Assembly (NCBI GenBank): GCA_021513695.1
Contig: CP084166.1
Span: forward strand, 512,001 to 576,000
DNA: 64,000 nucleotides
Source: Candidatus Heimdallarchaeum aukensis
GTDB taxonomy: Archaea > Asgardarchaeota > Heimdallarchaeia > Heimdallarchaeales > Heimdallarchaeaceae
Direction: 5' to 3'
Below, in pieces: positions 1,933 through 48,065 of this stretch. The position numbers and the translations under genes were made by a program. Position 1 is the stretch's first letter; every line of letters starts with the position of its first letter. Below the pieces are notes generated by a model. It had not been told where the DNA came from. It saw nothing but the letters and a program-made list of their open reading frames with translations, and searched no databases.

Positions 1933-2301
1933 TTATAATTCTTCTAATTCATATTCTGTAACTTCTTTTTTAAATTCTTCTTCAGTTAATAGTACAACAT
2001 CAAAATCTAAATCTTCTATTTTCATATTAATAACATTGTATGAACTACCAATTTCAATATGAGCTTTAGGAAACCCATACTTGAGATTGGATGCAATCAT
2101 AGGATAAATATTCTTTTTAGGAGGATCTCCTGCAACAGTAAATATGATGTCTAAATCACTCTTATTACGATGATTCCCTCTTCTTCTTGAACCAGCTCTT
2201 GCTATTCCACTAACTCTAAGTCCAGTATTGTTTTTTATGAAATTTCCAATACTTCTCCACAACTTTGCATATCTCTGTTCAAATTCAGGTCTTTCAGCCA
2301 C
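1933..2301 (-). CDS. minimal nucleotidyltransferase (Pol-beta superfamily, MNT-like)
   Basis: Signature G-S-x(n)-D-x-D: ARAGSRRRGNHRNKSDLDIIFTV. The 122-aa size is typical of minimal NTases. No HEPN-like partner lies next to it. Confidence 0.6.
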   Translation of the reverse strand: MAERPEFEQRYAKLWRSIGNFIKNNTGLRVSGIARAGSRRRGNHRNKSDLDIIFTVAGDPPKKNIYPMIASNLKYGFPKAHIEIGSSYNVINMKIEDLDFDVVLLTEEEFKKEVTEYELEEL

Positions 2302-2404
2302 AAGCTAAATTATTACTTAAAATATAAAAACATTTTTTCTTTTTTTCTTTAATTATTCTTAAAAATTTTTATTTTGAATTTCAAATTATTTTTTCAATTT
2401 GAAT

Positions 2405-3415
2405 AAGAGCGTTCAAAAATTAATTTTTATTAATGTGAGGGTTTATGTTGGAATTATGACTTACTTTCAGATCAAGATCCCCACAAAGTAAGAGAATTCA
2501 TAATCATTATGAACCTTTCCTTAAGAAACTGGTGGATGAGAAAACGAGAGAAAGCAAAAAAGGAAGAAAAAGAATAGCAAAAAGATGGGTGATTCTGGCT
2601 TTAGCGATTATTGCTAGAATAGACGGGATAGCTTGGAGGAAGTTAGAAGAAAAGTTGTCTCTATGTGATTTTTTGATAGAAGAGGGGTGGATGAGGAAGA
2701 TTCCTTCTAAATCTACTTTTCATGCTGTATGGAGAGCAACAGAAAGTAAAATCTTAGAGCAGTGGATAATAGATTTAGGGGGAGAAATAGTGAGAAAAAA
2801 AGGGTTGAAAGCTATGGCGGTGGACAGTTCAGGGTTTAAAATCCATCAAGCTTCTGTTTGGCGTTTTCTCAAATGGTCAAGAGGGACACTAAAGAAAACC
2901 TCTAAACTAAACTTCTCTTGAAGATACACCTTATAGCTGGTTTACCCTCCAGAGCTATAGTCTCTCTAGCACATTCTGCTAGTAACACTCACGATAGTAA
3001 AGTCTTCGGTTTGTTATGGCAAAAACTTCCTTCTGCACTCTTAAGACCGCTCTTGAGATTCTATGGTGACTGCGCCCACTGGACAGAAAATATCGTCGGT
3101 CTTCTTAGCCAACATTCCTTTTTTCCTGTTATTCCCCCAAAAAGTAATGCTCGTTATCCCTCTCCTCCTCCCCTTGGACCAATAGTTCAAGCTCATCGTC
3201 TCTACCCTGTTCTCTATCGTTTATCATAATCACCACCCCGAGTATCGTAGTAGTATTGAACACGTCTTTGGTCTCCTCAAACTCTCTCTTCCCCCAATCC
3301 TTGATCGCTTACCCTCTACCATTCTCTCTACTCTTTATAGTTCTCTCCTCTGTTACAACTACCTTTTATTCCTTCGGACCGTTTAGCAGGTGAAAAAGAA
3401 TTTTTGGACATGCTT
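2405..3415 (+). mobile_element. IS5-family-like insertion sequence, copy 1 (decayed)
   Basis: About 1 kb, closely similar by eye to the inverted copy at 50695-51700. Right terminal repeat is AATTTTTGGACATGCTT (3399-3415); the left end is degenerate (AAGAGCGTTCAAAAATT). Flanked by the 7-bp direct repeat TTTGAAT (2398-2404 and 3416-3422). Visibly more G+C-rich than its surroundings. Confidence 0.8.
2456..3386 (+). pseudogene. DDE transposase (IS5/DDE_Tnp_1-like), multiply broken
   Basis: The ATG at 2456 hits TAA after 11 codons (MTYFQIKIPTK*). ORFs 2532-2921 and 2918-3229 then lie in different frames, and the C-terminal HHPEYRSSIEHVFGLLK... lies in a third frame. The motifs AVDSSGF, KIHL..GLPSRA, YGDCAHW and IEHVFGLLK fit the D-D-E layout of IS5-type enzymes. 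Confidence 0.75.
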
Positions 3416-3861: not shown

Positions 3862-5361
3862 TTATATATTTCTCGTTTGCTCAAGTTTACTTCTTTGTTT
3901 CCACAAATTAAGTATTCTTCGCTGTTTTTCTGATATTGTTTCAGTTTTTACTCTTTTTATTGCTCCTATCTTTTCATAAAAAGCATATAGTGCTGCCACT
4001 TTTATTTCCTCATTTTCTTCTATTTTTTCTTTGATTGAAGCTTTTTCTATAAAGTCTGTTGAAACTATTCTTTCTTGGAATTCTTTTGTTTCAAGTATAG
4101 TTTTATGGAAATCTATGTTGGTTGTAATCCCACTAATTGTTAATTCTTTAAAAGCTAACCTTGCTCTTTCTATTGCGTCGTTTCTTGTTTTTCCCCATAC
4201 AATTAGTTTTCCTAAAAGAGAGTCATATTCATTTGACACATTGTAAGATGAAAAAACAAAAGTATCAAATCTTACATGATATATACTTGGAGCTATTAAT
4301 TGTTCAATTTTTCCTGATTTAGGTAAGAAGGTTTTTGGGTCTTCAGCATTTATTCTAAATTCAATTGCACTTCCATTTATTTTTATTTCATCTTGAACAT
4401 AACTTAATTTTAATCCTCCTGCTACTCTGATTTGTTCAACTACAAGATCTATTCCAGTAACCATTTCTGTTACAGGGTGTTCTACTTGAATCCTTGGATT
4501 AACTTCATTGAAATAAATTTGTCCATCTTTGTAAAGAAATTCAGCTGTTCCAGCATTAACATATCCTAGCTCTTTAGCCATCTTACAGACTTTTTCTCCA
4601 AGTTCATTTCTTTCTTGTTCTGTCAAAAATGAAGGCGCTTCTTCTATTAGTTTCTGATGAGAACGCTGAATGCTACATTCTCTATCTCCTAAGTGGATTA
4701 CATTACCATAACTATCTCCAATGAACTGTATCTCTATGTGTCTTGGAGATTCGATGTATTTCTCTATGAAAACAGACTTATTACCAAAAAAGTTCTCTGC
4801 TACAGATTGTGCTCCTAAAAGAGAGATTTCTAAAGTTTCGGGAGAGTTGACTATTTCCATTCCTTTTCCTCCCCCTCCAAAAGCAGCTTTAATAATTATA
4901 GGATAACCTATTTTTTCTGCTACTGTCTTTGCTTCTTCCAGTGTTTCTACATATCCTTTTGAACCTGGAACAACAGGTATTCCTACTTTACTTGCTATGC
5001 TTCTTGCTTTAACTTTGTCTCCTAGAAGGTCTATTACCTCTGGAGAAGGACCAATGAAAACAATCTTGCTTTTTATTACTTTTCTTGCAAATTCTGAGTT
5101 TTCAGAGAGAAAACCATAACCTGGATGTATAGCATCACATTTAGCTTTTTTGGCTATTTTTATTATTTTATCAATGTTAAGATAAGTTTCATTAACTGAA
5201 CCAGAACCAATACAATAAGCTTCATCTGCTAGTTTAACGTGTAATGACTGAGAATCGACTACGGTAAAGATAGCTACAGTTTTGATATTCATAAGTTTAC
5301 AAGCACGAATGATTCTAACAGCTATCTCTCCTCTATTTGCAATAAGTATCTTCTTAAGCAT
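3862..5361 (-). CDS. biotin carboxylase (ATP-grasp) subunit of a biotin-dependent carboxylase (AccC/PycA type)
   Basis: MLKKILIANRGEIAVRIIRA, HPGYGFLSEN, glycine loop GGGGKGM, EVNPRIQVEHPVTE. Start moved to the ATG at 5361 because the 27 upstream residues of the ORF track look like AT-rich read-through. No BCCP or carboxyltransferase gene is adjacent. Confidence 0.9.
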   Translation of the reverse strand: MLKKILIANRGEIAVRIIRACKLMNIKTVAIFTVVDSQSLHVKLADEAYCIGSGSVNETYLNIDKIIKIAKKAKCDAIHPGYGFLSENSEFARKVIKSKIVFIGPSPEVIDLLGDKVKARSIASKVGIPVVPGSKGYVETLEEAKTVAEKIGYPIIIKAAFGGGGKGMEIVNSPETLEISLLGAQSVAENFFGNKSVFIEKYIESPRHIEIQFIGDSYGNVIHLGDRECSIQRSHQKLIEEAPSFLTEQERNELGEKVCKMAKELGYVNAGTAEFLYKDGQIYFNEVNPRIQVEHPVTEMVTGIDLVVEQIRVAGGLKLSYVQDEIKINGSAIEFRINAEDPKTFLPKSGKIEQLIAPSIYHVRFDTFVFSSYNVSNEYDSLLGKLIVWGKTRNDAIERARLAFKELTISGITTNIDFHKTILETKEFQERIVSTDFIEKASIKEKIEENEEIKVAALYAFYEKIGAIKRVKTETISEKQRRILNLWKQRSKLEQTRNI

Positions 5362-32725: not shown

Positions 32726-33670
32726 CTATAATTTAGGTAAGATCTCTTTTGAGAAAAGTTTCATTTGTTCAATTTCTTGGTTTCCTGGAAACATAAAAAT
32801 AAAATGACTAACACCTAATTTTTTGTAATCTTTGATTTTTGTAGTTATTTCTTCAATTGTTCCGTGCATTGCTCCTTCATATCTCTTCTCAAGTTCTTCT
32901 AAAGTAAATCCTCTTTTTTCAGCTATTTCTCTCCAAGCTTTAATCTTTTCTTCTTCGCTTTCATAAATCCTGGTCCAGATACCATAACTTCTTAGTAGAG
33001 AATCTGGTTTTCTATCATTTTTTTCACAAAGTTCATCTAACAAATTCATTTTCTCTTCAAAAACTTCAAGAGGATAAGCCCAAGCTAAATTTATTCCATC
33101 AGCATATTTAGAAGCAAGTGTAAGCATCTTGATTTTGGCATACATTGTACCTACCCAAATTTTCATTGGATTTTGAACAGGTTTGGGAAAAGAAATAGCA
33201 TCTTTTAACTGATAATACTTACCTTCAAAAGTAGCCTTGTCTTCAGCCCATAACTTTCTAATTACTTGAATCGCTTCTTCAAGCATTCCTAATCTATCTT
33301 TTACACTGGGAAAAGGAATACCATAGGCTGAATACTCTAACTCTTTCCACCCTGCACCATATCCGAAGTCTATTCTACCATTAGAATAATTATCTAATGA
33401 AGCAATTTGTTTAGCAAGAACTGAAGGATAACGATAATTGTTACACAATACTAATGAACCAATTCTTAACTTTGTTGTATATGAAACTGCAGCCATCATT
33501 GCAACTATACACTCTTGACTTTCCAGATTTGTTGCATCTGCATTTAACATAAAATGATCAGAAAACCAAGCGTGAGTGAAACCCAATTTTTCTGCATTTT
33601 GTACTATATATTTTATTTGATCAAAAGAATAGCCAAATTGTGGTTCAATTTGTATTCCATAGTATGACAT
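32726..33670 (-). CDS. luciferase-like (LLM-class, probably F420-dependent) oxidoreductase
   Basis: MSYYGIQIEPQFGYS...AEKLGFTHAWFSDHFM...GRIDFGYGAGW pattern; 314 aa. Confidence 0.8.
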   Translation of the reverse strand: MSYYGIQIEPQFGYSFDQIKYIVQNAEKLGFTHAWFSDHFMLNADATNLESQECIVAMMAAVSYTTKLRIGSLVLCNNYRYPSVLAKQIASLDNYSNGRIDFGYGAGWKELEYSAYGIPFPSVKDRLGMLEEAIQVIRKLWAEDKATFEGKYYQLKDAISFPKPVQNPMKIWVGTMYAKIKMLTLASKYADGINLAWAYPLEVFEEKMNLLDELCEKNDRKPDSLLRSYGIWTRIYESEEEKIKAWREIAEKRGFTLEELEKRYEGAMHGTIEEITTKIKDYKKLGVSHFIFMFPGNQEIEQMKLFSKEILPKL

Positions 33671-33828
33671 AACTGTATTTGTTTTTTTAATTAAATAAAG
33701 GTTATTGTTCCCAAATTTTCAATTTTGGCTTGATTCAATTTTGTATAGGAACAATATTGATAGAACAGTTTATCTTTTCTTCAAATAATAAGGAAGCATT
33801 AAAATATAAGTTCAGAAAAAAAGTAATT

Positions 33829-34242
33829 ATGCAAGAGTCTGCACTTTTTCGATATTTTGACCAATTTGAAAGAACGGACTTGCTATTCATCAATTTCGCA
33901 TTTCTGATTATAATTATCCCAGGACTAATTTTCGGATTGTTAAGTAAAATCATTTGGATGTTTTATGTAGCTTTAGTTGTACTTTTTTTCTTTGTTTGTT
34001 GGAATTGTCTTTACTTCTACATAAAATTCAAACTAAACAAACAAGAAAAAGAACTGCTTAAGACTATTCCAAGTTTTCCTCAACTCGACTTCTGTGATTA
34101 TTGTGGTAAATCATTAGAAAATTCAGCTCCTGCAGTGATTGATAATAATCTAATCATTATTTGCCCTCATTGTGGAAAAGAAAATATTGTTAAATCAGAG
34201 GAAGAAATTGAACAAATAAACAATGAACAAGCAGATTCATAA
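33829..34242 (+). CDS. small membrane protein with C-terminal zinc ribbon
   Basis: Start moved to the ATG at 33829 (MQESALFRYF). Two hydrophobic helices, then CDYCGKSLE...ICPHCGKEN. Its stop lies 17 nt before the next gene. Confidence 0.55.
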   Translation: MQESALFRYFDQFERTDLLFINFAFLIIIIPGLIFGLLSKIIWMFYVALVVLFFFVCWNCLYFYIKFKLNKQEKELLKTIPSFPQLDFCDYCGKSLENSAPAVIDNNLIIICPHCGKENIVKSEEEIEQINNEQADS

Positions 34243-34259: not shown

Positions 34260-35960
34260 ATGAAAAAAAAAGCGAAAATACTTTTTTTACTAATTGTTTT
34301 CTCAAACTTAGTTTTTGTTTTGGTAACAAATACAAAAAACATTAATGCATTAAAAGAGCCTATTACTAGTGATTCTAATGAATTTCGAGCGTATAGTTTT
34401 GCTGTTCCTTACATGTACACTGATGTTACGATAAAGAAAGATGGCTCGATAGATATTTCTTATACCATTAACTTTACAAATTTTATTTTTGGAAATACTA
34501 TTGACATTATAGATATTGGTTTTCCTAATAAACATTACAATCTTAAAAGTGTTCAAGCTTGGATAGATGGTTATGAGATTACTGATATAAGGGAGAGTGA
34601 ATACATTAGTATAGGAGTAGAGATACATTTAGGTAGTCATTCTATTTTACCTGGTGAGAGCGCTGTATTGGTAGTTAAAGGGAATAATCCTAAAATGGTT
34701 TTTAAAGACGATACCAAAAAAAATTTTGCTAGTTGTGTTTTCAGGCAAACTTGGTTTAGTTCACAATTTGCTTTTGGAGAAACTGAAAGAAGAGTGAGAT
34801 TTTATTTTCCTGAAGATTTAACTGATATGAATGAAGTAGAAAAAAGAGTTTCGGACACTAGTGTAAATTTCACTAGGGAAGCAGATTACGTCGAGTTTAG
34901 CAAAACCAGTACTCCCTATGATAATGATTTTTATGTGGGTGTAGGAATACCTTCTAACTATGTTGATAAAATGTATAGGGAGTTTTGGGTTTATAGATTT
35001 GATGAACTTGTTGCTCAAGCATTGTTTTTCCTTTTCTTCTTTGGATTCTTTGGGATATTTTTCTATGTTTTTTGTATTTATCCCCTAAAAGAAAGAAAAA
35101 GATATCTCCCTCCAACTATAAAGTCGACAGGAGGAGCTGTAAGAATGGGTTTGAAACCTTCCGAAGCAGCTATTATCTTAGAAAAACCTCTTACTCTTGT
35201 AGCTTCTTTAGTTATTTACGAAATGATGTCAGAAGGATTGATTACTGTTAAACAAAAAGAACCCTTAAGATTTAAAGTTGAGATATCTACTAAAGAGAAA
35301 TCCAAATTACCTACTTACCAGAAGCATATTATTAATGGAATTAAGAAAAGAGAAAAATCAGACTTAAAATGGGAAAAGGGAAGTGTTTCTGGTGCTCGAC
35401 CACACGATCCTTTTGACCAAGATTACATAAGAAAAGCGCTTTTATCCTTAATTAGAGAAACAACTATGAAAATGAAAGGGTATAACCTGAAGAAAACAAA
35501 GAAGTACTATAATGAATTAATAGAAAGAGCTTGGCAAGACATGAAAAAAGAAAGACCAGAACTAGAAAATGCTTTCCTATGGATAATGATAGATGAAGAT
35601 TATGACGACAGAATGAAAGATCATTATCATGACTATTATTACCCTTCATGGTATGTTTATCATTATCATACCCATTATTATGGTAGAAATAGAGGAAGAG
35701 GAAGAGATAGGATAACTGGTAGAGAATTAAGAAAATCTGGTTTTAGAAGAACAAAGATAACAGATAGGGGACAGATAATCCCTGGAACAGATTTCAAGCG
35801 AATACAAAAAAATATTGTTAGAAGCCCAAGAAAATTACTTTCGTCAGTAAAATCAAAGACCAGACCTGTTTCTAGCAGCTCGGGAAGAAGTGGAGGGGGA
35901 GGAGGAGGTTGTGCTTGTGCTTGTGCTTGCGCTTGCGCTTGTGCCGGAGGAGGACGATAA
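34260..35960 (+). CDS. DUF2207-like membrane protein with C-terminal GGGGGG-(Cys-Ala)6-GGGR tail
   Basis: AGGAG SD. Signal peptide MKKKAKILFLLIVFSNLVFVLV, ectodomain with YTDVTIKKDGSIDISYTINF, one TM (ALFFLFFFGFFGIFFYVFCIY), PP..GLKPSEAAIILEKP..LVIYEMMSEGLITV. His/Tyr block HYHDYYYPSWYVYHYHTHYY and RG-rich block. Tail SSSSGRSGGGGGGCACACACACACAGGGR. Confidence 0.75.
   Translation: MKKKAKILFLLIVFSNLVFVLVTNTKNINALKEPITSDSNEFRAYSFAVPYMYTDVTIKKDGSIDISYTINFTNFIFGNTIDIIDIGFPNKHYNLKSVQAWIDGYEITDIRESEYISIGVEIHLGSHSILPGESAVLVVKGNNPKMVFKDDTKKNFASCVFRQTWFSSQFAFGETERRVRFYFPEDLTDMNEVEKRVSDTSVNFTREADYVEFSKTSTPYDNDFYVGVGIPSNYVDKMYREFWVYRFDELVAQALFFLFFFGFFGIFFYVFCIYPLKERKRYLPPTIKSTGGAVRMGLKPSEAAIILEKPLTLVASLVIYEMMSEGLITVKQKEPLRFKVEISTKEKSKLPTYQKHIINGIKKREKSDLKWEKGSVSGARPHDPFDQDYIRKALLSLIRETTMKMKGYNLKKTKKYYNELIERAWQDMKKERPELENAFLWIMIDEDYDDRMKDHYHDYYYPSWYVYHYHTHYYGRNRGRGRDRITGRELRKSGFRRTKITDRGQIIPGTDFKRIQKNIVRSPRKLLSSVKSKTRPVSSSSGRSGGGGGGCACACACACACAGGGR
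35910..35945 (+). repeat. hexanucleotide coding repeat (TGY GCN)x6 encoding (Cys-Ala)6
   Basis: TGTGCT TGTGCT TGTGCT TGCGCT TGCGCT TGTGCC, in frame with 34260-35960. Confidence 0.95.
35946..35954 (+). promoter_or_regulatory. Shine-Dalgarno-like GGAGGAGGA for the radical SAM gene, embedded in the terminal Gly codons of the upstream gene
   Basis: GGA GGA GGA CGA TAA A ATG: 7 nt separate the purine run from the ATG at 35962. Confidence 0.5.
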
Positions 35961-35961
35961 A

Positions 35962-37284
35962 ATGCCAAAAGAAGAAAAAGAAGAACAGAAAAAGATGTTT
36001 CACCTAAGAAACGAAGAAACCTTTACTAGAATGCATTTAAGGAAAGAAAAGAAAGGACAAGGAATACTAATAGTTAACGCCAACAGAATCTTTCACCTAA
36101 ATAAAACAGCAACTCAATTCGTTGAATACATAATAGAAGGAAAAAAAGATGAAGAAATAATAAGAAAAATGGTTAACAAATACAATGTTCACGAATCACA
36201 AATAAGAACAGATCTAATGAATCTGAAGATCGCAATAGAAGATATAGTAAATAAACCAGATATTGACCCGGTACAAGAACTGTTTGACGAAGATATGGAA
36301 ATGGAGAGAATGATTTTTTCAGCTCCATTGAGAATGGACTTGGCTATAACTTACAAATGCAATAACAAATGTGTCAAATGCTACGTTGAAGAAAAAAGAG
36401 AAATAAAAGAATTAACAACAGAAGAATGGAAAAAAGTCTTAGATAAACTGTGGGATATAGGTATTCCCCACGTAACATTTACTGGAGGAGAACCCACAAC
36501 AAGAAAAGATTTAGTGAAACTAGTAGAATACGCAGAAGATATAGGCATAGTAACGGGACTAATAACCAACGGAAGAAACCTGAAAGACAAAAAGTTAGTA
36601 GAAGAACTAGTAGCAGCAGGAATAGATCATTTCCAAATAACAATAGAAAGCCATATACCAGAAGTACATGATAAATTAACAGGAGTAAAAGGATCGTGGG
36701 AAGAAACAGTAGAAGGAATAAAAAACGTTGTACCTACACCAGTGTTTATTATGACAAACACAACTCTAGTTCCAGAAAACATAAAAGAAATAGATAAAAC
36801 AATAGAATTTTTAGCTAAGTTGGGAATAGACCACTTCGCAGCAAACGGAATAATAAAAGCTGGAGGAGGAAAAGATGACTCACTAGACTTAACAGTAGAA
36901 GAACTAAACAAAACACTAGATACAATAATGAAGAAAGCTGAAGAAATGAAAATGAGATTTCTATGGTACTCACCAACAAGATATTGTGAATTTAACCCAG
37001 TAAAGAAAGGACTAGGAGTAAAACAATGTACAGCAGGAAATATAGCAATGGCAATAGAACCAGATGGACAAGTAATACCATGCCAAAGCTACTTTGAACC
37101 ACTAGGAAACATATTAACTACTCCATGGAAAAAAATATGGAACCATAAAACAACAAAAAGAATAAGAAAAAGAAAATACTTGCCCCAAGAATGCAAAGGC
37201 TGCCCAGAAAAAGAAATATGCGGAGGAGGATGCCCTCTAAATTATCAAGCGCCAATAACTGTTTGCAGAGACGCTCTTTCGTAA
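35962..37284 (+). CDS. radical SAM / SPASM-domain peptide-modifying enzyme with N-terminal PqqD-like (RRE) domain
   Basis: PqqD-like ILIVNANRIFHLNKTATQFVEYIIEGKKDEEIIRKMVNKYNV...DLMNLKIAIEDI; CNNKCVKC (Cx3Cx2C); FTGGEP. SPASM pattern C-x12-G-x4-C (CTAGNIAMAIEPDGQVIPC), CKGCPEKEICGGGC (Cx2Cx5Cx3C) and a final Cys. Start moved from the ORF-track 35890 to the SD-preceded ATG at 35962. Confidence 0.9.
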   Translation: MPKEEKEEQKKMFHLRNEETFTRMHLRKEKKGQGILIVNANRIFHLNKTATQFVEYIIEGKKDEEIIRKMVNKYNVHESQIRTDLMNLKIAIEDIVNKPDIDPVQELFDEDMEMERMIFSAPLRMDLAITYKCNNKCVKCYVEEKREIKELTTEEWKKVLDKLWDIGIPHVTFTGGEPTTRKDLVKLVEYAEDIGIVTGLITNGRNLKDKKLVEELVAAGIDHFQITIESHIPEVHDKLTGVKGSWEETVEGIKNVVPTPVFIMTNTTLVPENIKEIDKTIEFLAKLGIDHFAANGIIKAGGGKDDSLDLTVEELNKTLDTIMKKAEEMKMRFLWYSPTRYCEFNPVKKGLGVKQCTAGNIAMAIEPDGQVIPCQSYFEPLGNILTTPWKKIWNHKTTKRIRKRKYLPQECKGCPEKEICGGGCPLNYQAPITVCRDALS

Positions 37285-37346: not shown

Positions 37347-37639
37347 TTACATCTTTTTTCCTTTTCCTGTTTTTTCCCATTCACTAAACTTATCTATTAG
37401 TTCGTCAATAGCATGTGTTATCTCTTCAGTGATTTTTTCAACAATAATTAATTTGTCATCTTCAATTCGAATAGACAAAATAGAACCGAGTTCAACCAAC
37501 CATAATTCAAGTTCATTAAGATCTTCAAAACCTAATTTTTCCTGTAAAGTAATTAAAGGTATTTTAGAATTATTAGATAGGACTTTGAATAATTTTTAGC
37601 TCTTTCTATTTCAATATCGCGAGAATCAAAATAGTTCAT
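37347..37639 (-). pseudogene. orphan duplicated 3' fragment of the 40618-43875 gene
   Basis: About 290 bp, near-identical by eye to 40618-40910. It translates to [15 protein letters not shown], loses frame, and ends ...KFSEWEKTGKGKKM*. Its ATG overlaps the TGA of 37636-40335 (ATGA). Confidence 0.8.
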
Positions 37640-40335
37640 TTTTTCTTCCCCTTTCCTTTACGTTCCCACTCACTGAACTGTTTGAGTAAATCATCAATAG
37701 CTGTAGTCATATCTTCAGAAACAAATTCGCCCTCAAATTGTAAGTCAAAGATTACTTCGTCTCTTTCGATTCTATTCGGTACATCCTTTGAATAGATGTA
37801 TAACCATAATTTCATAATCTCTATATCTTCAAAATCTAATAATGGAGAAAGCTTATTTAGACTTATTTTGTCGTAAACTAAACTAATTTTCTTAAGACGG
37901 TCAAGTATTTTATTATTAGTTTTTTTATCATTAATTATTTTTGTTAATTCAGACAATGTTCTATTATCTTCATCCAGTATATCTTTAACTATCGTTACTT
38001 TCTTTGTTGCAAAATCAAAAACTTCTGACCAATTATGTGCAAAAGATGGAAATAGTTTCTTAATTGTAGAAAAAGTATCACCTTTAAAAGAGATTATATA
38101 ATTTAAGAATGATAGCAATTTTTTATAACTAGCTATTATAGGCTTAAACTCTTGATCAGACCACTTTTCAATGAGTTTAGTTAACATTTCTTTTTTGAAA
38201 CTTTGTAAATTTGTAAAATTAATAAGATCAACTAAATAATTTATTTTACTGAGAACGGTATTATTTACGAAATAATCTAATTGATCATATGTTTTGTTTA
38301 ATTGTTCTCTTTCTATTTTTCTTAATTTTCTCTTATTTGAGCTGATAAAAAGGTAATCTTTAAGAAATAGTTTCAATTTTTCAAGATATTTTATAATCTC
38401 CTCAATTGAACTAATAAATAATAGTAAGGAAGAAGTGTTTATGAAAATCTTATCAAATTCTTCATTTAATTTAGTTTGCATATTTATTATCCCTGAGAAA
38501 TTTTCTCTTATCCTTAACCTTATTTTGTGTTCATAAACAAAAAAAAGAGGTAGGATAACAGATATAAGAAGTATAAGAGAAAAACATATTTTTTCAATTG
38601 GTTTAAGATAAATACTCTTTTTTAAAGGATTTTTACCATTTTCTATTTCCCAACCATCGAACAAACCGTCATCATCAGTATCAGAATCTAAAGGGTCAGT
38701 TCCAGCTAGATACTCTTCCAAATTAGTTAAACCATCTCCGTCCAGATCTTCTGATGAATCATATAACAAAGGGTTTAATGAATTACATAGTTCCCATCCA
38801 TCAGGTATGCCATCATCATCAGTATCGGGATCATTAGGGTCAGTTCCAGCTTGATATTCTTCTAAATTAGTTAAACTGTCTTTATCTTTGTCAACATAAG
38901 TGTCATTACTCAAAGGATTCAATAAAAATTCTACTTCCCAACTATCAGGTATGCCATCATCATCAGTATCAGAATCTAAAGGGTCAGTAGAATGCAAGGT
39001 CACTTCTTGAAAATCAGATAAGCCATCATCGTCAGTGTCTGAATCTAAAGGGTCAGTACTGTAAATAGTCACTTCTTGAAAATCAGAAAAGCCATCATCG
39101 TCAGTGTCTGAATCTAAAGGGTCAGTACTGTAAATAGTCACTTCATCTCCATCGTTCAAGCTATCATCGTCAGTGTCTGAATCTAAAGGGTCAGTACTGT
39201 AAATAGTCACTTCATCTCCATCGTTCAAGCTATCATCGTCAGTGTCAGAATCCAAAGGGTCAGTAGAATTCTGATACTCTTCTAAATTAGTTAATCCATC
39301 GCTATCTGGGTCTTCTGCAGAATCATCGATAGTAGTGTTTAAACCATTATTTTCTTCCCATTTGTCAAGCATATTATCTTGGTCTAAGTCTACATGCATG
39401 GGATAAGGATCAAAATTGTTAGCTGAACCATCTATAGGATATGGTCCTGTTCCACTCCAGTCATACCAATAGTTACCTGTTGTACCAGAATAAAATTTAT
39501 TGTATGTCCCATAATCACATGCTTGAGAAGAACCACCTAGATTATTTTTTATTAAGAAGTTTTTTACAAATATTTCATTTTTAGAGCTCTCATTTAGATA
39601 TATACCATAAGAATAACTATTTATTATAATATTGGAAGTAAAAGTATTTTTGTTAGAAACATCAAAGAGAATACCATAATTACTACTATTTACAACAGTA
39701 TTTGAAATAAAAGAATTGTTAGAACTACAAGAAAAAAATATGCCATCATAATAACTATTTGTTATAGTATTGGAAGTAAAAGTATTATTAAAACTAGAAT
39801 GAAGAGACATACCATAATTACTACATATCACAGAGTTGAAGGTAAAAGTATTATTGTTACTACAATAGAGGAAAATACCTACATTATAGCTATTTATAGT
39901 ATTATTAAATACAGTTATTGTTCCATCTGCAACAGAATAAATATAAATACCATAAAATGAACTTGAACCGCCCCCTTCAAGATAACAATCTCGAATAAGA
40001 ATATACTTTGTTGTCCCAGATATCTTTATACCATGAGATGTAGAGTCAGTTATACTATAGTTTTCAATGACATAAGGGTTATCTTTTGTCCCAGAACCAG
40101 GAAAAACAGTAAGATCATCATCAGACTCAATAAGAATAGGCGAATGAACTGTATAAACTTTTTTTACAGCTCTAGTTTCATTTGAATTTACACTAGACAT
40201 TGAATCTATTGTTATTTGATTAGATTGTAGAACCATATTTTCCTCTATTTGAGTCGAAAGGTAAACAAAGAAAACTGTAGTTGTTATTAATATTAGTACT
40301 AAACTTAATTGTATATAAGTTGCTATTCTTTTCAT
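37636..40335 (-). CDS. giant type-I membrane protein A: beta-helix (PbH1/NosD-like) + TSP3-type Ca-binding repeats + TM + cytoplasmic coiled coil + conserved C-terminal module
   Basis: Signal/anchor [26 protein letters not shown]. PbH1-like units ([19 protein letters not shown]...), [17 protein letters not shown], repeated [34 protein letters not shown], then about 330 aa Lys/Glu-rich helical sequence ending [21 protein letters not shown]. Confidence 0.8.
38948..39268 (-). repeat. tandem 69-bp (23-aa) coding repeats, TSP3-like
   Basis: Units [23 protein letters not shown] x2 are almost identical at the DNA level. They are followed by [46 protein letters not shown] and a partial fifth unit. 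Confidence 0.9.
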
Positions 40336-40617
40336 TTTTCAACCCTAGATACTCTAACTCTAAAGTAAATGCTTATTGAACATTTTCAAGATTTTAAATT
40401 TGAGTCACTTAATATTAAACAAAATACTAATTAACTTTTTCTACTAAACTTTGATTAATGTATAATCTGCACACATTAGGATGAAAGAAACTAAACTGTT
40501 TTTAGAGAAAAAATTCAAAATAAATGAACCACATTCAGTTATAACTAAAAAAATTCAGTGATTTTAATTAATATGTATGCTTCACAAAAACAACATGAGA
40601 TTTTCAACATTCTTTTT

Positions 40618-43600
40618 TCATTCTTTTTTACCTTTTCCTGTTTTTTCCCATTCACTAAATTTATCTATTAGTTCGTCAATAGCATGTGTTATCTCTTCAG
40701 TGATTTTTTCAACAATAATTAATTTGTCATCTTCAATTCGAATAGACAAAAAAGAGCCAAGCTCAACCAACCATAATTCAAGTTCATTAAGATCTTCAAA
40801 ACCTAATTTTTCTTGTAAAGTGAATAAAGGTATTTCAGAAGTAGTGGATAAAACCTTGAAGAATTCTTTAGCTCTTTCTATTTCAACATCTCGAGAATCA
40901 AAATAGTTTATTTTTTCTTCTATTTTTTCTTTTAATTCATTGTATTGTTCTATTCCATTGCTGGATAGCTCTCCTACTGTCTCTGTGTTCATAACCCTAC
41001 TATAATTTTCTTTCCAGTTAGCTAATTTTTCGTCAAACTCTTTAAAATATAACTCACTTTCTGTTATTTTTCCTTTTAGAGAATACACAAACAGATTATC
41101 TATTTCTTTTCTTAGCTCTTCTCCTTTTTTATCTAACAATATTAAAGGATAAAGATAAATAAGATCTCGAACTTCTTGTCTCTTATTTTCTATTTCTTGT
41201 AATTCCTCTAACAAGTCTTTTCTTTCTTCATTGGTTATTTGTTTAGAAAGAATTTCAAGTTTAGATTGAAAAAAATCACGAAAACCATCTGTTATCTCTA
41301 ATAACTTTTTTACTTTCTCGTAGTTAATATTAATGTTTAAGTCTTGTTGATTAATTATTTCTTTCTCTATTTCTAAAAATTCATCAAAGGTTTGTTTTTT
41401 GTGTATCTTAATTTGATTAATGTACGCATTTAATTCTTCTTTTGAAATTTGCTCATCAATATTTTTGATTTCATAGATCTTGGAAGAAAGCAAAGCATTT
41501 CGTATATCTATTTTTTCTATCTCTTTGGCATAGATTAAGTACTCATTACTTAATTCTTTGAATTCAAAAAAGACTTTAGCTATCCTTTTATTATAGTTAT
41601 CAAGATCAATTTTTTTATAATCGTTCTTTTGCACATAGCTATTGATCTGTTGCAAATCAGAGAGCAGTTGTTGCTTCTTTTCTAATATTTTATTCAACAA
41701 TAAGATATATTCATCTGTAATTTTTCTTTCTAATTCAGTCTTAATTTGTGATAACTTTTCTATAAAATCATTAATCTCCCTTTTCACTTTTTCAAATTCA
41801 ATAATATTTTTCTTTCCAATTATAACCTTAAATAAATTAAACTTTGAGCGATAAGAACCAATAATATTATCTAATTGTTTAGCACTATTAACCCATTCTT
41901 TAAAATTATCAGGTGAATATGATTGAAGAAGATATTCATCTATTTTTTCCTTAAATTTATTAAATTCCAAAAATTGTTTATTATATTCGTTCTTCAGTTG
42001 GATGATTTTTTCTCTCTGTTTTTTCTTAATTAATAAAATAGTTGTTGTTACGCTTCCTATTACCAAAAAACTCAATAGACAGGAAAGCACAATTTTAATT
42101 TTTTTTGCTCGAGGATTGCTTAATTTATTTAATGGATCACTTCCATAAATGATTATTTCATCATAATCATTAAATTTGTCATCATCTGTGTCATTTTTTG
42201 TTGGATCTGTGTGGTAAGCATATATTTCTTCATAATCAGATAAACCATCTCCATCAGTGTCAGAATCTATGGGATCAGTTAAGAAAACTATAACTTCTTG
42301 ATAATCAGTTAAACCGTCGCTATCTGAGTCTTTCTTATAAGGAAAAGAATGAAATATTTTAACTTCTTCATAATCACTTAATTTATCATCATCAAAATCC
42401 CCATCTCTTATACATCCTCCAAAAATAACTTCATCATAATCATTAAGACCATCACCATCAGTGTCATTGAAATTAGGATTAGCCATCCACTGATATTCTT
42501 CTAAATTTGATAAGCCATCTCCATCAGAATCGGCCTTGGAGTCATCTAAATTATAGACAATTTCCCAAGCATCTTCCATTCCATCAGAATCAGAATCATT
42601 CTCGACAGATGCAACTCGCCTAGGAAAGATATCTCCAATTTTATTTCCATAAATAGAATAAAAATTGGTAGTACCATCCCAATCTTCCCATAAATTGCCA
42701 ACTAGTAAAGTAGGAGAATACCAGTAAGTGTTAGTGCCATAATCTTCATTATTATCTTGAATCTTCAAAAAAGAATTATTGAAGACTATGTTATAATCTC
42801 CTCTTTCACCAATCCTTACTCCCCCTAAACCTGTTCCACAAAAAAGGTTATTATAAATCAAACTGTTACTTACTTCGAAACCATAACTAATAGCAAAATT
42901 AGTTGAATTATAGATATTGTTATTACTAATAACAACGTTATTACATCTTTCTAAATATAATCCATCTGATGTTGCTCCATTTATCAAATTATCAGAGATT
43001 ACAATTTCACTATTACCACTTGACCATAGGCATGAAGCCCAATCATTAGTTGTTTTTTCTAAATTATTGTAAAAGATTTTTATTTTTTTATTATCTCTAA
43101 CTCCAATGCTTCCTGCTCCATTAGTTATACATGTGTTTTTTATAATTGTAACATTTGAAGATTCAGAAACTAAAATACCAAAACCAGAGTTATTGGCAGA
43201 ATAATTATTTTTTATCAAGCTATCTCCAGATTGATGTACCAACACGCCATATTGATTATAAAGAAGAGTACAATTCTCAACTATTACACCACCTGCTCTA
43301 GTTTCAGAAGAAATCCCAACTTCATAACCTTGAATAAAACAATTCCTAATTATTACGAAAGAACTAACATAACGAATAACAATACCACAAGAATTTTCTA
43401 AATACTCAGTATCACCAGTTGAAACTTCATAGTTCTCAATTATATAAGGGTCTGCTTCAGTTCCTGAACCAGGAAACCCAAACTTTACAAAGTCTTCTTC
43501 ACTATTGATTTCTATCGGTGAATGAACAATATAACGTGTTTCTTTAGCATTGTTTCTTTCGGCAATTGCTTTTTGACAAGAACTACCATGGTTTATTTGT

Positions 43601-43875
43601 CTGTAGCTTGAAGTTAAATTATGCTTATCAATTGAGCGATAATTATCATATTCTTTTCCATTCTCTGTTTTATTGTTATTAAATTTAGAAGCCTTTTCAT
43701 CTACATAATTATCTATTAGGTGAAAAGTTGGAGTAAGAAAAAGAAAAATAACTAAAGAAACAATAATTCTTTTATAGTTTGGAAATATATTGTTTAATAT
43801 TTTCATTTCTAGAACAAGTATATACATTACAATAAAAAAATAAAAGTTTTTCTTCACTATTTCTTTTCTTTTCAT
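40618..43875 (-). CDS. giant type-I membrane protein B (same architecture as A, longer coiled coil)
   Basis: N-terminal anchor, beta-helix units (NNSGFGILVSESSNVTIIKNTCITN...), TSP3-like DSDGDGLSNLEE / DTDGDGLNDYDE / DSDTDGDGLSDYEE, TM IVLSCLLSFLVIGSVTTTILLI, and about 480 aa coiled coil ending AIDELIDKFSEWEKTGKGKKE. Confidence 0.8.
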   Translation of the reverse strand: MKRKEIVKKNFYFFIVMYILVLEMKILNNIFPNYKRIIVSLVIFLFLTPTFHLIDNYVDEKASKFNNNKTENGKEYDNYRSIDKHNLTSSYRQINHGSSCQKAIAERNNAKETRYIVHSPIEINSEEDFVKFGFPGSGTEADPYIIENYEVSTGDTEYLENSCGIVIRYVSSFVIIRNCFIQGYEVGISSETRAGGVIVENCTLLYNQYGVLVHQSGDSLIKNNYSANNSGFGILVSESSNVTIIKNTCITNGAGSIGVRDNKKIKIFYNNLEKTTNDWASCLWSSGNSEIVISDNLINGATSDGLYLERCNNVVISNNNIYNSTNFAISYGFEVSNSLIYNNLFCGTGLGGVRIGERGDYNIVFNNSFLKIQDNNEDYGTNTYWYSPTLLVGNLWEDWDGTTNFYSIYGNKIGDIFPRRVASVENDSDSDGMEDAWEIVYNLDDSKADSDGDGLSNLEEYQWMANPNFNDTDGDGLNDYDEVIFGGCIRDGDFDDDKLSDYEEVKIFHSFPYKKDSDSDGLTDYQEVIVFLTDPIDSDTDGDGLSDYEEIYAYHTDPTKNDTDDDKFNDYDEIIIYGSDPLNKLSNPRAKKIKIVLSCLLSFLVIGSVTTTILLIKKKQREKIIQLKNEYNKQFLEFNKFKEKIDEYLLQSYSPDNFKEWVNSAKQLDNIIGSYRSKFNLFKVIIGKKNIIEFEKVKREINDFIEKLSQIKTELERKITDEYILLLNKILEKKQQLLSDLQQINSYVQKNDYKKIDLDNYNKRIAKVFFEFKELSNEYLIYAKEIEKIDIRNALLSSKIYEIKNIDEQISKEELNAYINQIKIHKKQTFDEFLEIEKEIINQQDLNININYEKVKKLLEITDGFRDFFQSKLEILSKQITNEERKDLLEELQEIENKRQEVRDLIYLYPLILLDKKGEELRKEIDNLFVYSLKGKITESELYFKEFDEKLANWKENYSRVMNTETVGELSSNGIEQYNELKEKIEEKINYFDSRDVEIERAKEFFKVLSTTSEIPLFTLQEKLGFEDLNELELWLVELGSFLSIRIEDDKLIIVEKITEEITHAIDELIDKFSEWEKTGKGKKE

Positions 43876-44044
43876 TATTTCATTTTAAAGTAGTTTATTT
43901 ATCAAGTTCAACTTGCATAAAAGAATACAAATAAAACTAATACGAAAAATCGATGAAAAACATAAGATTCACAGAATGGATAAAATAAGACAGAAAAAAA
44001 ATATAATATTTCATATTTTTTTCTAAAAACTAAAATTAGTGAAA

Positions 44045-46010
44045 TTACTTCTTTTTCCCCTTTCCTGTACGCTCCCACTCACTAAACTGTTTAAGCAGAT
44101 CATCTATAGCTTCAGTCATATCTTCTGCCACGAACTCACCCTCAAGTTGTATATCGAACATTACTTCTTCTCCTTCTATCTGATTTGGTAAATCTTTAGA
44201 ATAAGCATATAACCATAGTTTCAAGACCTCTTTGTCTTCAAAGTCTAACAAAGGAGAAAGCTTGGTTAAACTTATTTTATTATAAACAGAACTAACTTTC
44301 TTAAGTCTTTCAAGTCTCATATTATTATTCTCACTATCATTAAATATTTTAGCTAACTCACCTAATAATTGTTCATTTTGTTCTAATAGTTCTTGGACAA
44401 TAACCAATTTTTCAGTAGCTAAATCTTTAATATCAGACCAGAAAGAGTCAGAAGAAGCAAATTTAGTAAAAGCTTTATGATCAATAAAAGCTACAATGTA
44501 ATTTAGGGTTGATAATATCTCTTCATAGCTGATAATTAGAGGTTTGAACTCCTTATCAGACCAATTATAGACAATGTTAGTTAACATTTCTTTAGTGTAA
44601 TCAAACAAATTTTTATAATCAATAAATTCAATTAATGAAACTACTTTATCATGAAGAGAGGAGCTGATAAAAGAGGTTATTTTTTCAAAAATCTTGTTAA
44701 ATTGTTCTTGTTTATTAGTTTTTAATCTTTTGCTGTTAGAATGAACAAAAATTAACTTTTCAAGAAGATTACCTAACTTTTCAAAATAGTCTTTTATCTC
44801 CTCTGCAGAAGAAACGAAAGAAATTAATGAAGAAATTTCTGTAAAAGTTTCCTTATACTTTCCATCTAATTCAGATTGTAAATGAATTACTTTTTCAAAT
44901 TTTTCCTTTACTTTTATTCGCATTATTAATACATGAATGGAGAATGTTACAAGAATAACAAATATAGGAAGTATAGCAAAATAACCTATTTTTTCTACTT
45001 GAGACAAATAAATATTCTTTTTTACAGGATTTTTTCCATTTTCTACTTCCCAACCGTCAAGCATACCATCTCCATCAGTGTCATTGTCCAAGGGGTCAGT
45101 AGAATAGATATGAACTTCTTGACCATCAGTCAGTCCATCTCCGTCACTGTCACTGTCCAAGGGGTCGGTATTGTAAGTATTTATCTCTTCATAGTCATCA
45201 AGTCCATCGTCGTCTGTGTCATTATCTATGGGGTTAGTACCTATTTGATACTCTTCTAAATTGGTCAAACCATCATTATCAAAATCCTCTGTAGAGTCAT
45301 CAATATTTGTGTCCAAGCCATTATCTTCTTCCCATTTGACGGGTATATTATCCTGGTCTAGATCCACATACATAGGATAAGGATCAAAGTTATTAGCGGA
45401 ACCATCTATTGGATATACTCCTGTTCCATTCCAGTCATACCAATAGTTCCCTGTTGACCCAGAATAAAACTTATTGTTTGTTCCCTCATCATACGCTTGT
45501 GAAGAACCACCTAAATTATTTTTAATTATGATGTTTTCCATAAAACTATTATTAGAGTATAACGGAGTCTTATACCATAAGAATTACTATTAGCTATAGT
45601 TTTAGAGCTAAAAATATTGTAAGAACTATTAAGAATATATACACCAATATAGCTACTGTTTGCTATGGTGTTAGAGGTAAAAATGTTATAAAAACTATAG
45701 CCTAGTTATATATTGTAGATACCACCATTTGTTATAATATTATTTATAAAAATATTATTAGAACTAGAACCGAGACTAATACAACACCAATCATTATTTA
45801 TAATTGTATTAAAAATAAAGTTGTTATTAGAACTATAACCTATTCGTATACCGTAATAACTAACAGTAATATTATTGAAAAAGAATGTGTTATTAGAGCT
45901 ATATTGAAGATTTATACCACTGGTAATTATATTTGTTATTTTATTAGAAATAAATGTATTATTAAAACTAGTTTCAATCCAAATACCATAATTCTTATTA
46001 TTTCTTTAGT
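44045..46010 (-). pseudogene. paralog C of the giant membrane protein family, 5' (beta-helix) part decayed
   Basis: ORF 44045-45541 starts inside the conserved [25 protein letters not shown] segment. DNA from 45542 to about 46010 still resembles the PbH1-repeat region of A (39600-39900) but contains stops and frameshifts, and no signal peptide remains. Confidence 0.75.
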
Positions 46011-47054: not shown

Positions 47055-48065
47055 TGTTCACTCAATAGACCTGGGTTACACTTTTGGGTACTAGAGAAAC
47101 ATAGGGGTGATTCATAAATTTTTCTCCAGGAGTAAGGAGGTTAAGAGACTGGTGAGGACGGCTAAAATTGTAGTATGAGCGGTAGAAGGAGAGGTCGGAG
47201 TTACAGTAGGTTAGTCCTAGTCTTTTCATCTCACGGATAATGGTTCCATGTAGTCTTTCTACTTTTCCACATGTTTCGGGGTGAAAAACTCTAGATCTTA
47301 TGTGCTTTATTCCCTCTGTTTGACACCAACGGGAGAAGGTACTTGTTCCCCCTCTAACGGAGTAGAATAGTGCTCCATTGTCTGTGAGAATAGACTCGGG
47401 GTATCCATATTTTTCTACTGCTTCTTCTAACAGACTTATTATCTGCTCTTTTTTCGGTGCGAAAGGGTGGAGTTTAGCTCCCAGGCAGAATCGTGAGTGG
47501 TCGTCTATTAGAGTTATGAGATAAAGGTGTTGTCCTTGTTCTTCTACCCAGAAAGGTCCTTTCACATCTATCTGCCAGAGTTCGTTAGGGGATGAGCGCT
47601 CAAAACTCTTGTATTGAGTAATGTTTCTCTTTTTTCTATTACTCCACAGAGGAAGACCTAACTCCCCTATTACTTTAACTACTGTGTTTCGCGATAGTGC
47701 TCTTCCTTCTTTCTTCAACAGATAAACTATCTTCTCCACGTTCATTCCTTGCTTTACTCTTAACTCCCTTATCCTCTCTCTTAACTCCTCATTCACTTTC
47801 CTGTGTATAGTTTTAGGTCTAGATGATCTATCCTTCCACCATTCTCCTTCAGGGTTCTCCTTAAACCTTTTCAACCACTTATATACAAACTTCCTACTCA
47901 CCATATACCTGTGAGCTACCTCTTTTATCTTCTCTCCTTCCAAAGCTTTTTTAACCACAATCTTTCTTAGTCTCTCTAGGTTACGTTTGGGTTTGTTCAT
48001 AATTCGTCACTTACCCTCGTAACCCACTTTCTATTTATTTGTTACCAACGTGGGTAGAGTAAACA
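47055..48065 (-). mobile_element. IS481/IS3-like (rve integrase-type) insertion sequence
   Basis: 1011 bp between the 16-bp direct repeats. Imperfect terminal repeats TGTTCACTC.../TGTTTACTC... One ORF. Visibly more G+C-rich than host DNA. Confidence 0.8.
47062..48000 (-). CDS. DDE transposase, rve (integrase core) type
   Basis: 312 aa with an N-terminal HTH (KEVAHRYMVSRKFVYKWLKRF). LWQIDVKGPF (D), ESILTDNGALF (D), CGKVERLHGTI (E), YNFSRPHQSL. Confidence 0.85.
   Translation of the reverse strand: MNKPKRNLERLRKIVVKKALEGEKIKEVAHRYMVSRKFVYKWLKRFKENPEGEWWKDRSSRPKTIHRKVNEELRERIRELRVKQGMNVEKIVYLLKKEGRALSRNTVVKVIGELGLPLWSNRKKRNITQYKSFERSSPNELWQIDVKGPFWVEEQGQHLYLITLIDDHSRFCLGAKLHPFAPKKEQIISLLEEAVEKYGYPESILTDNGALFYSVRGGTSTFSRWCQTEGIKHIRSRVFHPETCGKVERLHGTIIREMKRLGLTYCNSDLSFYRSYYNFSRPHQSLNLLTPGEKFMNHPYVSLVPKSVTQVY

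Follow-up and report, generated by a model that had tools for sequence, protein, structure and literature searches.

Radical S-adenosylmethionine (SAM) enzymes with a SPASM domain are a main source of new peptide chemistry and, to our knowledge, almost all of these maturases act on short secreted precursor peptides. The sactipeptide and ranthipeptide synthases (SkfB, which is a sactionine thioether synthase, AlbA, StsB, CteB and PapB) consist of three parts, a PqqD-like RiPP recognition element (RRE; RiPP, a peptide made by the ribosome and modified after translation), a radical SAM core with the CxxxCxxC motif and a SPASM domain that holds eight cysteines. Their substrate genes lie next to them and encode a regularly spaced multi-cysteine motif, as in freyrasin and the SCIFF-type precursors. 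In the QhpD/QhpC, PqqE/PqqD and MftC/MftB systems, a radical SAM/SPASM enzyme modifies a ribosomal polypeptide which stays in the protein or yields a cofactor; MftA is modified at its extreme C-terminus. Here we describe a gene cassette found in 64,000 nucleotides from Candidatus Heimdallarchaeum aukensis (contig CP084166.1, positions 512,001 to 576,000; this stretch is called the window and all coordinates refer to it). In this cassette the gene of a 566-amino-acid membrane protein (34260..35960, + strand) ends in a (Cys-Ala)6 array and is directly followed by the gene of a radical SAM/SPASM enzyme (35962..37284, + strand). We consider it probable that the adjacent enzyme acts at several sites on the tail of the membrane protein, which would serve as its substrate in the cytoplasm while tethered to the protein.

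The cassette shares with the RRE-dependent radical SAM/SPASM maturase systems the radical SAM motif, the SPASM domain, the fused RRE and the adjoining substrate gene, and with the sactipeptide and ranthipeptide systems also the three-part enzyme and the regular spacing of the cysteines. However, the substrate in those systems is a leader-core peptide of 30-100 amino acids, while here it would be the C-terminal tail of an integral membrane protein of about 550 residues, and no short precursor that is processed by a protease or exported was found. With QhpD, PqqE and MftC the system would share the modification of a polypeptide that afterwards serves within a protein or as a cofactor precursor, and with MftA the site at the extreme C-terminus. 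It differs from them in that quinone, amine-dehydrogenase and mycofactocin genes are absent from the cassette, and (CA)nGGGR has no counterpart in them.

The (Cys-Ala)6 array is located at 35910-35945 on the + strand (TGT GCT TGT GCT TGT GCT TGC GCT TGC GCT TGT GCC), in frame with the 3' end of the open reading frame (ORF) 34260..35960. The product terminates in ...SSSSGRSGGGGGG-CACACACACACA-GGGR*, where six glycines (Gly6 spacer, 35892..35909) stand directly before CACACACACACA, and the GGGR terminus with the TAA stop codon (35958-35960) occupies 35946..35960. Tandem Repeats Finder gave a period of 6, 6.0 copies and 93% matches for the array. The initial annotation had described the hexanucleotide repeat at this place, with variation confined to third codon positions and a perfect (TGTGCT)3 as its first 18 nt, and the re-reading of the window agreed with it in each of these points. 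No other run of (CA)≥2 occurs in the six frames of the window (GC content 30.8%). The degenerate pattern (TGYGCN)6 has one exact match in the window, while in 100 dinucleotide-preserving shuffles no match was obtained even with up to three mismatches allowed. The ORF at 35678-35968 had been taken for an antisense artefact of the tail gene; it exists, yet nothing speaks for its being a gene, while homologues of the sense frame number in the hundreds. The reading as an artefact is reasonable.

The homology search with the tail protein returned 26 proteins, mostly from metagenome-assembled genomes (MAGs) of Heimdall-, Hod- and Promethearchaeota, with 28-47% identity to the query; the nearest match (P0001, 86% identical) is partial and lacks the C-terminus. 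Each full-length match terminates in (CA)n[G(CA)m]GGGR, and the CACACAGGGR end was present in 22 of the 22 full-length homologues. In the alignment of the family, where the mean column identity is 34%, C553-R566 forms the sole uninterrupted stretch of invariant columns. No part of the protein is conserved as strongly as the tail, and the remainder drifts to approximately 30% identity. The profile search against 1.84 billion representatives yielded 1109 clusters with E<=1e-3, of which 377 had E<=1e-30; the CACACAGGGR end was found in 121 of the top 145 representatives, the others being fragments or variants. A divergent subfamily (P0273, P0278, P0282, P0284, P0286, P0289 and P0290) carries a three-block tail, C[AV]C[AV]C[AV]-S-CACACACV-S-CACACA-GGG[AV][RGK], in which Val replaces some of the Ala residues, Ser stands for the Gly separator and the number of cysteines reaches 10. 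Invariant cysteines number 5-10 per tail.

A back-translated DNA pattern for CACACAGGGR* was scanned over GTDB contigs, with one genome per species, and at least 119 loci were obtained; counts over loci and tail genes given below are those among the matches listed. The pattern fixes the last ten codons of each tail, and the remainder of the array is free to vary. The tails comprise 131 distinct DNA sequences, whose genomes span 31-59% GC. Every synonymous codon of Cys (two), Ala (four), Gly (four) and Arg (six) occurs among them, whereas outside the ten fixed codons a single Tyr was seen in approximately 875 array positions. Replacements of Ala are rare (Val, Tyr or Asp, besides the Val-containing subfamily). 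The residues before the first Cys vary (GG, HS, SS, RS). The conservation of Ala alongside Cys suggests that the residue at the position between two cysteines is of importance, as it would be in an enzyme substrate. In a close relative (L130), with 87.6% nucleotide identity over 4.6 kb, (CA)6GGGR is kept: 6 of the 36 array nucleotides differ from the window, all of them synonymously, the unit number is equal and only the Gly spacer differs by one residue (G6 in the window, G7 in L130).

The number of units varies between lineages and always in frame, from (CA)6 in the clade of the window to (CA)5 in a sister clade and (CA)3-5-G-(CA)3-4 elsewhere; such in-frame variation had been foreseen. In four loci (L054, L059, L096 and L110, three of them with 'MFD' isolate labels) a frameshift near the Gly run parts the tail from the body of the gene. 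These frameshifted tails were seen only in MAG assemblies and are probably homopolymer assembly errors, not real truncations. The comparison of repeat number and third positions in relatives thus brought out neither out-of-frame heterogeneity nor loss of the tail.

The perfect (TGTGCT)3 at the start of the array and the difference of five versus six units between lineages would suit a neutral, slippage-made hexanucleotide microsatellite at the 3' end of the gene. However, the amino acids are conserved across two domains of life, where synonymous divergence is saturated, the 87.6% identical relative has the same length with synonymous changes only, out-of-frame variants are absent apart from the likely assembly errors, and a match by chance is not expected. 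The characteristics of a neutral coding microsatellite, that is near-identical units, length polymorphism in close relatives and the lack of wider conservation, fail here and we regard this explanation as refuted, leaving it practically no weight. The tail is selected at the peptide level: it is invariant in proteins of 28-47% identity, and at the amino-acid level the array does not change while its synonymous variation is saturated across relatives. The initial annotation, which had preferred selection on the peptide to a young slippage product, was borne out.

The second conserved element is the radical SAM gene. Of the 120 tail genes, 93 have an orthologue of it within 200 bp and a further 5 have one within 3 kb; the 22 tail genes without one are, in all but 3 cases, cut by the locus end on one side. 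In the seven loci reached via homologues of the tail protein, a radical SAM/SPASM gene adjoins in six, mostly overlapping the tail gene or a few nucleotides away from it, and in the remaining one (L010) a radical SAM gene, for which no SPASM domain was called, is situated just beyond the methyltransferase gene discussed below. Reciprocal searches that started from the enzyme led to one locus each in Eremiobacterota (L132) and Bathyarchaeota (L131), with a tail gene directly upstream in both. The pairing of the tail gene and the radical SAM gene is conserved across two domains of life.

In the window the ATG of the radical SAM gene (35962) starts 1 nt past the stop codon of the tail gene. The Gly codons GGA GGA GGA (35946-35954) contain a GGAGG Shine-Dalgarno-like run 7 nt 5' of this ATG, and GGA is the most frequent codon at the last Gly position in the 131 tails. 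Judged from this arrangement, the Gly codons of the tail probably double as the ribosome-binding site of the radical SAM gene, with translational coupling of the two genes. A start at GTG 35890, which would overlap the tail, was also considered; ATG 35962 was preferred, relatives having an ATG a few nucleotides past the tail stop, and for some orthologues the gene callers set the start farther upstream.

The enzyme consists of 440 amino acids and Pfam divides it into an RRE of the PqqD type (residues 38-86, 36073-36219, + strand; PF05402, 26.7 bits, cut-off 23.4), a radical SAM core (residues 129-284, 36346-36813, + strand; PF04055, 100.6 bits) and a SPASM domain (residues 356-415, 37027-37206, + strand; PF13186, 45.4 bits); this enzyme is the putative maturase of the tail. 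The CxxxCxxC cluster motif reads CNNKCVKC in the window and is present in 73 of the 73 high-scoring orthologues. The SPASM domain, which in such maturases has the Cx2Cx5Cx3C motif and 7-8 cysteines for two auxiliary clusters, contains CKGCPEKEICGGGC and four further cysteines, altogether eight C-terminal cysteines with canonical spacing, and the Cx2Cx5Cx3C motif occurs in 71 of the 73 orthologues. The orthologue of Ornatilinea matches PF05402 at 22.9 bits, slightly under the cut-off, and several sources label the orthologues as 'PqqD family peptide modification chaperone'. Across phyla the enzymes are 47-51% identical, versus approximately 30% for the tail proteins.

No NCBIfam equivalog matched the enzyme at its cut-off. 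The top model was PqqE (153 bits vs 381); the thioether synthases gave lower scores, namely SkfB (113.9 vs 300), StsB (107.1 vs 625), AlbA (81 vs 850) and PapB (72.7 vs 340); the cut-off of MftC (265) was not reached either, and NirJ2, AhbD, GeoRSP and WgkB were likewise far below theirs. The solved structures nearest by sequence are SkfB (E 8e-25) and, second, PqqE, then BlsE, SuiB, GDGT-MAS and CteB. On the basis of these similarities the enzyme is placed in the RRE-dependent peptide-maturase branch of the radical SAM/SPASM superfamily, outside any described family. Since PqqE, NirJ and AhbD score at least as well as the thioether synthases, the reaction may be of another type than thioether formation.

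The peptide epimerases have to be considered at this point. YydG, a radical SAM/SPASM enzyme, and the proteusin epimerases act on Ala/Val-type residues and can give alternating D/L peptides. An enzyme of the YydG/PoyD kind could convert the Ala or Val residues to their D-forms, resulting in a tail of alternating L-Cys and D-Ala with the thiols on one face. The strict alternation and the restriction of the non-Cys position to Ala or Val would suit this, and a mass-neutral change would be in accord with a tail that stays on the protein. However, families of the YydG or PoyD type are missing from the best 25 NCBIfam matches, the enzymes most closely related are ones that form crosslinks, invariance of Cys is needless for epimerization, and the idea is drawn from analogy. 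We therefore think an epimerase very unlikely.

The location of the tail was deduced from hydropathy, the positive-inside rule and the AlphaFold2 model of the tail protein (pLDDT, the model's own confidence score, 77.6). The predicted order from the N-terminus is a signal or anchor helix, a beta-sandwich ectodomain, one transmembrane (TM) helix, a cytoplasmic helical domain, an aromatic-rich segment, a basic Gly/Ser linker and (CA)6GGGR. The N-terminal helix comprises residues 3-26 by hydropathy (34266..34337, + strand; helix 2-31 in the model). The extracellular beta-sandwich (residues ~51-231, 34410..34952, + strand), which is well predicted, has a fold resembling Ost1/ribophorin I and the N-domain of M1 aminopeptidases. 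The TM helix spans residues 248-277 (35001..35090, + strand) by hydropathy and K/R counts (helix 247-277 in the model). Since the basic stretch ERKRYLPP follows directly after the TM helix, the C-terminal half was placed in the cytoplasm; where homologues contain additional insertions, their TM segments are odd in number. Thus the protein is predicted to be single-pass, with its N-terminus outside, its C-terminus inside and a cytoplasmic tail. The initial annotation had presumed the Gly-flanked tail to be disordered, and the model likewise predicts disorder there (pLDDT ~30). As the tail is predicted to be both cytoplasmic and disordered, an oxygen-sensitive Fe-S enzyme could reach it.

The cytoplasmic domain (residues ~300-477, 35157..35690, + strand) is winged-helix-like and helical, remotely similar to DUF2207_C. 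At its end, about 80 residues before the tail, lies the Tyr/His/Trp-rich stretch YHDYYYPSWYVYHYHTHYY (residues 455-473, 35622-35678), whose Y-x-P-x-W-Y core (P462, W464) is almost invariant across the family and at which redox or crosslink chemistry could also take place, as a second site. A moderately conserved motif, f..vt..TNP.P, was found 11-20 residues (median 16) upstream of the first Cys in the consensus of 150 family C-termini (alignment columns 740-770). Its version in the window, SVKSKTRPV (35841..35867, + strand), may be the sequence that the RRE domain recognizes.

The following model is inferred as regards the action of the enzyme on the tail, the kind of reaction it carries out, the part played by the methyltransferase and the function in the cell. 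The tail gene and the radical SAM gene would be co-transcribed and translationally coupled, in view of the 1-nt distance between stop codon and ATG and of the Shine-Dalgarno-like run in the Gly codons of the tail. The disordered tail would hang into the cytoplasm from the membrane protein, and the PqqD-like RRE would dock on its C-terminal region, for which f..vt..TNP.P / SVKSKTRPV is the candidate site. The radical SAM core may then abstract hydrogen atoms repeatedly along the array, one Cys-Ala unit corresponding to one Cys-centred event. By analogy with the sactipeptide and ranthipeptide synthases, the likeliest product would be a thioether between the sulphur of Cys and a carbon of Ala (or Gly). 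The product would subsequently be methylated by a class I SAM methyltransferase encoded next to it, which most lineages have but this window lacks, and the modified tail would remain on the protein. That the chemistry consists of thioethers specifically is perhaps the case but rather doubtful; it is proposed by analogy to the sacti- and ranthi-type systems. The possible acceptors in (CA)nGGGR are limited to Ala, Gly and Arg, and the curated equivalog models of the thioether synthases (SkfB, AlbA, StsB and PapB) are missed by a wide margin.

The all-against-all clustering of the ORFs of the 119 pattern-found loci showed which genes accompany the tail. Four families recur: the tail protein (102 loci), the radical SAM enzyme (93), a class I SAM methyltransferase (53) and a zinc-ribbon membrane protein (38); neither a protease nor an exporter or transporter was recurrent in the 119 listed loci. 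These data bear on the possibility that the system is a true RiPP, in which the last ~20 residues are modified, cleaved off (e.g. after the Gly run) and released, the 540-aa protein serving as a giant leader or scaffold. RRE-radical SAM enzymes normally act on precursors that are cleaved later, and the Gly-rich stretch before the array resembles double-glycine sites, at which leaders are cleaved. However, besides the lack of a conserved protease or exporter, the variability of the residues before the first Cys is at odds with such a site, and both the ectodomain and the cytoplasmic domain are well conserved and predicted to be folded, which would be unexpected for a disposable leader. The release of a cleaved product is highly improbable in our view.

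Many non-Asgard cassettes, mostly those of Anaerolineae, contain a second paralogue of the radical SAM enzyme in which the PqqD-like N-terminus is kept. In 43 of the 49 cases it is devoid of the CxxxCxxC and SPASM cysteines (median 2 Cys), for example at 2118-3278 of the Ornatilinea apprima locus (L067) and in 42 other loci. Judged by its sequence, this Cys-less paralogue is a pseudo-enzyme partner.

The first gene of the cassette in the window (33730..34242, + strand) encodes a small membrane protein with a C-terminal CxxC...CxxC zinc ribbon. It was recognized by its ORF, by hydropathy, with two hydrophobic segments, and by weak Pfam matches (zinc-ribbon, DZR, DUF7575); its start may be an internal ATG. 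An equivalent of approximately 120-135 aa is situated directly 5' of the tail gene in L001, L007, L009, L067, L130 and L132.

The initial annotation had offered two functions for the alternating cysteines, a ligand array for metal or clusters and a substrate of multi-site modification. The adjoining RRE-radical SAM-SPASM gene and the pairing across two domains favour the second, and the first is retained here as a rival. The tail would then be a metal- or iron-sulfur-cluster-binding array (comparable to a metallothionein or a cluster scaffold) at the cytoplasmic side of the membrane, and the radical SAM enzyme a functional partner which leaves the tail covalently unmodified and, e.g., receives or donates the cluster or acts on another molecule held by the tail. 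Cysteines in C-x-C spacing within flexible Gly-flanked segments are typical of thiolate ligand arrays such as those of metallothioneins, and the tail resembles them in its alternating Cys in a flexible, Gly-flanked segment. The 5-10 invariant cysteines in strict C-x-C spacing, the flexible Gly runs and the predicted disorder are in agreement with such an array, as are the zinc ribbon of the small partner protein and the distribution, all carriers named being from anaerobe-rich lineages, where free thiolates are stable. However, x is normally free in metal-binding C-x-C, whereas here it is Ala in nearly all of the approximately 875 positions, with an occasional Val. In contrast to metallothioneins, moreover, the array makes up just 12-20 residues appended to a large membrane protein and is paired with a peptide-modifying enzyme, which recognizes peptides by an RRE domain, to judge from its sequence, and is similar to maturases that crosslink peptides; neither the invariant GGGR end nor the conserved methyltransferase would be explained. 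We judge the ligand array, together with the role it assigns to the enzyme, to be unlikely.

Several observations weigh against modification of the tail by the adjacent enzyme. The link between the two is drawn from gene adjacency and is circumstantial, and three tail genes have no radical SAM gene although their loci extend for 1.5 kb or more to either side. A membrane protein of approximately 550 aa is an unusual substrate for RRE-dependent maturases in comparison with a short leader-core peptide. The enzyme reaches no NCBIfam equivalog of a thioether synthase, and its scores against PqqE, NirJ and AhbD, where the chemistry is C-C bond formation or concerns tetrapyrroles, are at least equal. 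Alternating Cys-x-Cys is a classic metal-binding pattern too. Finally, phmmer and Pfam scans of the neighbouring ORFs revealed no methyltransferase in the 64-kb window.

The similarity of the methyltransferase is of the generic class I type, with a weak match to the lanthipeptide C-terminal methyltransferase LahSB (46.6 bits); it is uninformative as a pointer to the chemistry. In other Heimdallarchaeota (L037, L063) the methyltransferase gene adjoins the radical SAM gene.

The product of the cassette might be a protein modification of a new type, finished by methylation and still attached to the cytoplasmic tail of a membrane protein of the ribophorin-I/DUF2207-like kind: either Cys-derived crosslinks arranged as a ladder, or a backbone of alternating D and L residues. 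The crosslinks could, for example, join the sulphur of Cys to a carbon of Ala, so that neighbouring residues would be bridged by a radical reaction in a manner resembling lanthionine or sactionine. We put this forward tentatively, as somewhat less probable than its opposite. In this case the tail would be a built-in redox, metal-binding or signalling module, and the system would be old enough, or mobile enough, to have reached Asgard archaea, methanogens and more than 10 bacterial phyla of anaerobes.

An RRE-radical SAM/SPASM enzyme with an adjoining Cys-rich substrate is known already. New are the large membrane protein as the substrate, the (CA)n core, the absence of processing genes, the Cys-less paralogue, the methyltransferase and the occurrence in both archaea and bacteria. 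Neither Pfam nor NCBIfam (June 2026 release) nor the literature that could be searched contained a record naming the tail, the protein family or the radical SAM subfamily, and the string CACACAGGGR was not found in the literature searched. A known, named system was also considered and dismissed, the Pfam and NCBIfam scans of the window, Ornatilinea and Eremiobacterota cassettes having given no specific family. The system offers enzymologists a minimal repetitive substrate, (CA)n: should the chemistry be ordinary thioether formation, the class of substrate would be new, and if it is not, the chemistry would be.

The tail protein of the window matches no Pfam or NCBIfam family at threshold, and two described groups of membrane proteins resemble it. 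The DUF2207 proteins (PF09972, PF20990; e.g. SMU.243 of S. mutans) have a large extracellular N-terminal domain, one or more TM segments and a large intracellular C-terminal part with a Gly/Ser-rich stretch at its end, and only stress-tolerance phenotypes have been reported for them (PMC10457818). According to the AlphaFold2 model and hydropathy the tail protein has the same architecture. In the cytoplasmic domain DUF2207_C was detected below threshold in 5 of the 24 members (best E 9.9e-5; 13.3 bits vs 33 for the window protein). Neither PF09972 nor PF20990 exceeded its gathering score, the N-terminal DUF2207 model had no match and no family was obtained at E<=0.01. The (CA)nGGGR tail and the obligate radical SAM neighbour are not described for DUF2207.

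Ost1/ribophorin I, a subunit of the eukaryotic oligosaccharyltransferase, shares with the tail protein the beta-sandwich fold, the single TM helix and the cytoplasmic helical domain. However, the Pfam model Ribophorin_I gave no match, STT3/AglB is absent from the conserved neighbours, the tail family is mostly bacterial, and Ost1 has no Cys-Ala tail. Since the N-domains of M1 aminopeptidases score almost as well, the ribophorin-I-like fold is a widespread one. Sequence-level membership failed for both DUF2207 and ribophorin I, and the family is best described as having a DUF2207-like architecture with a ribophorin-I-like ectodomain fold. Through the tail system the function of DUF2207-like membrane proteins becomes approachable for the first time, with Ornatilinea apprima P3M-1 as a cultured host.

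The family ranges over Asgard archaea, Bathyarchaeia and more than 10 bacterial phyla, many candidate phyla among its carriers. Most of the carriers belong to Anaerolineae/Chloroflexota, which ruled out an Asgard-specific feature; among the others are Methanomassiliicoccales and further Thermoplasmatota, Planctomycetota, Acidobacteriota/Aminicenantes, Hydrogenedentes, Fermentibacterota (Sabulitectum, Hyd24-12), Zixibacteria, Coatesbacteria, Clostridia, Polyangiaceae and the Asgard lineages (Heimdall-, Hod- and Promethearchaeota). One of the carriers among the matches listed, Ornatilinea apprima P3M-1, is cultured. Homologues of the family were present in 122 of approximately 130 loci, which represents all tail genes of assessable length, and the proteins comprise ~480-770 aa. 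A portable tag on unrelated proteins was ruled out, every assessable tail ORF belonging to this one family, and so were short stand-alone precursors, the short ORFs being truncations at locus edges or frameshifts.

Some loci deviate in detail. Two contain tandem tail-bearing paralogues: in L010 (966-2684 and 2715-4589) both end in CACACAGCACACACAGGGR and are followed by the methyltransferase gene, and in L102 (3-1514 and 1533-3482) the methyltransferase gene also comes after them. In the Bathyarchaeota locus (L131, CP070659.1, ~4916-4990) the tail gene 5' of the radical SAM orthologue reads ...ARCVCA[TGA]ASCACACACVSCACACAGGGAR*. This in-frame TGA, the only case among all loci examined, stands at the position of a Cys in relatives of the divergent subfamily (e.g. 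P0284); it may encode selenocysteine, result from a nonsense mutation or be an error of sequencing.

In the window, immediately 3' of the cassette and at the place which the methyltransferase gene occupies in relatives, three consecutive genes (37636-45541, - strand) encode proteins of 899, 1085 and 498 aa with NosD/right-handed beta-helix domains and with bacterial thrombospondin type 3 (DxDxDxD) repeats. An insertion sequence-type transposase (HTH and rve integrase core) is found at 47062-48000 (- strand). The transposase and the surface-protein genes may mark a rearrangement that parted the methyltransferase from the cassette. On the 5' side of the cassette (32726-33670, - strand) lies the gene of an F420-dependent luciferase-like oxidoreductase resembling TIGR03560 (204 bits vs the cut-off of 231), with a TPR protein beyond it; both are syntenic only in Heimdall relatives (L001, L130) and lie outside the cassette that is shared across phyla.

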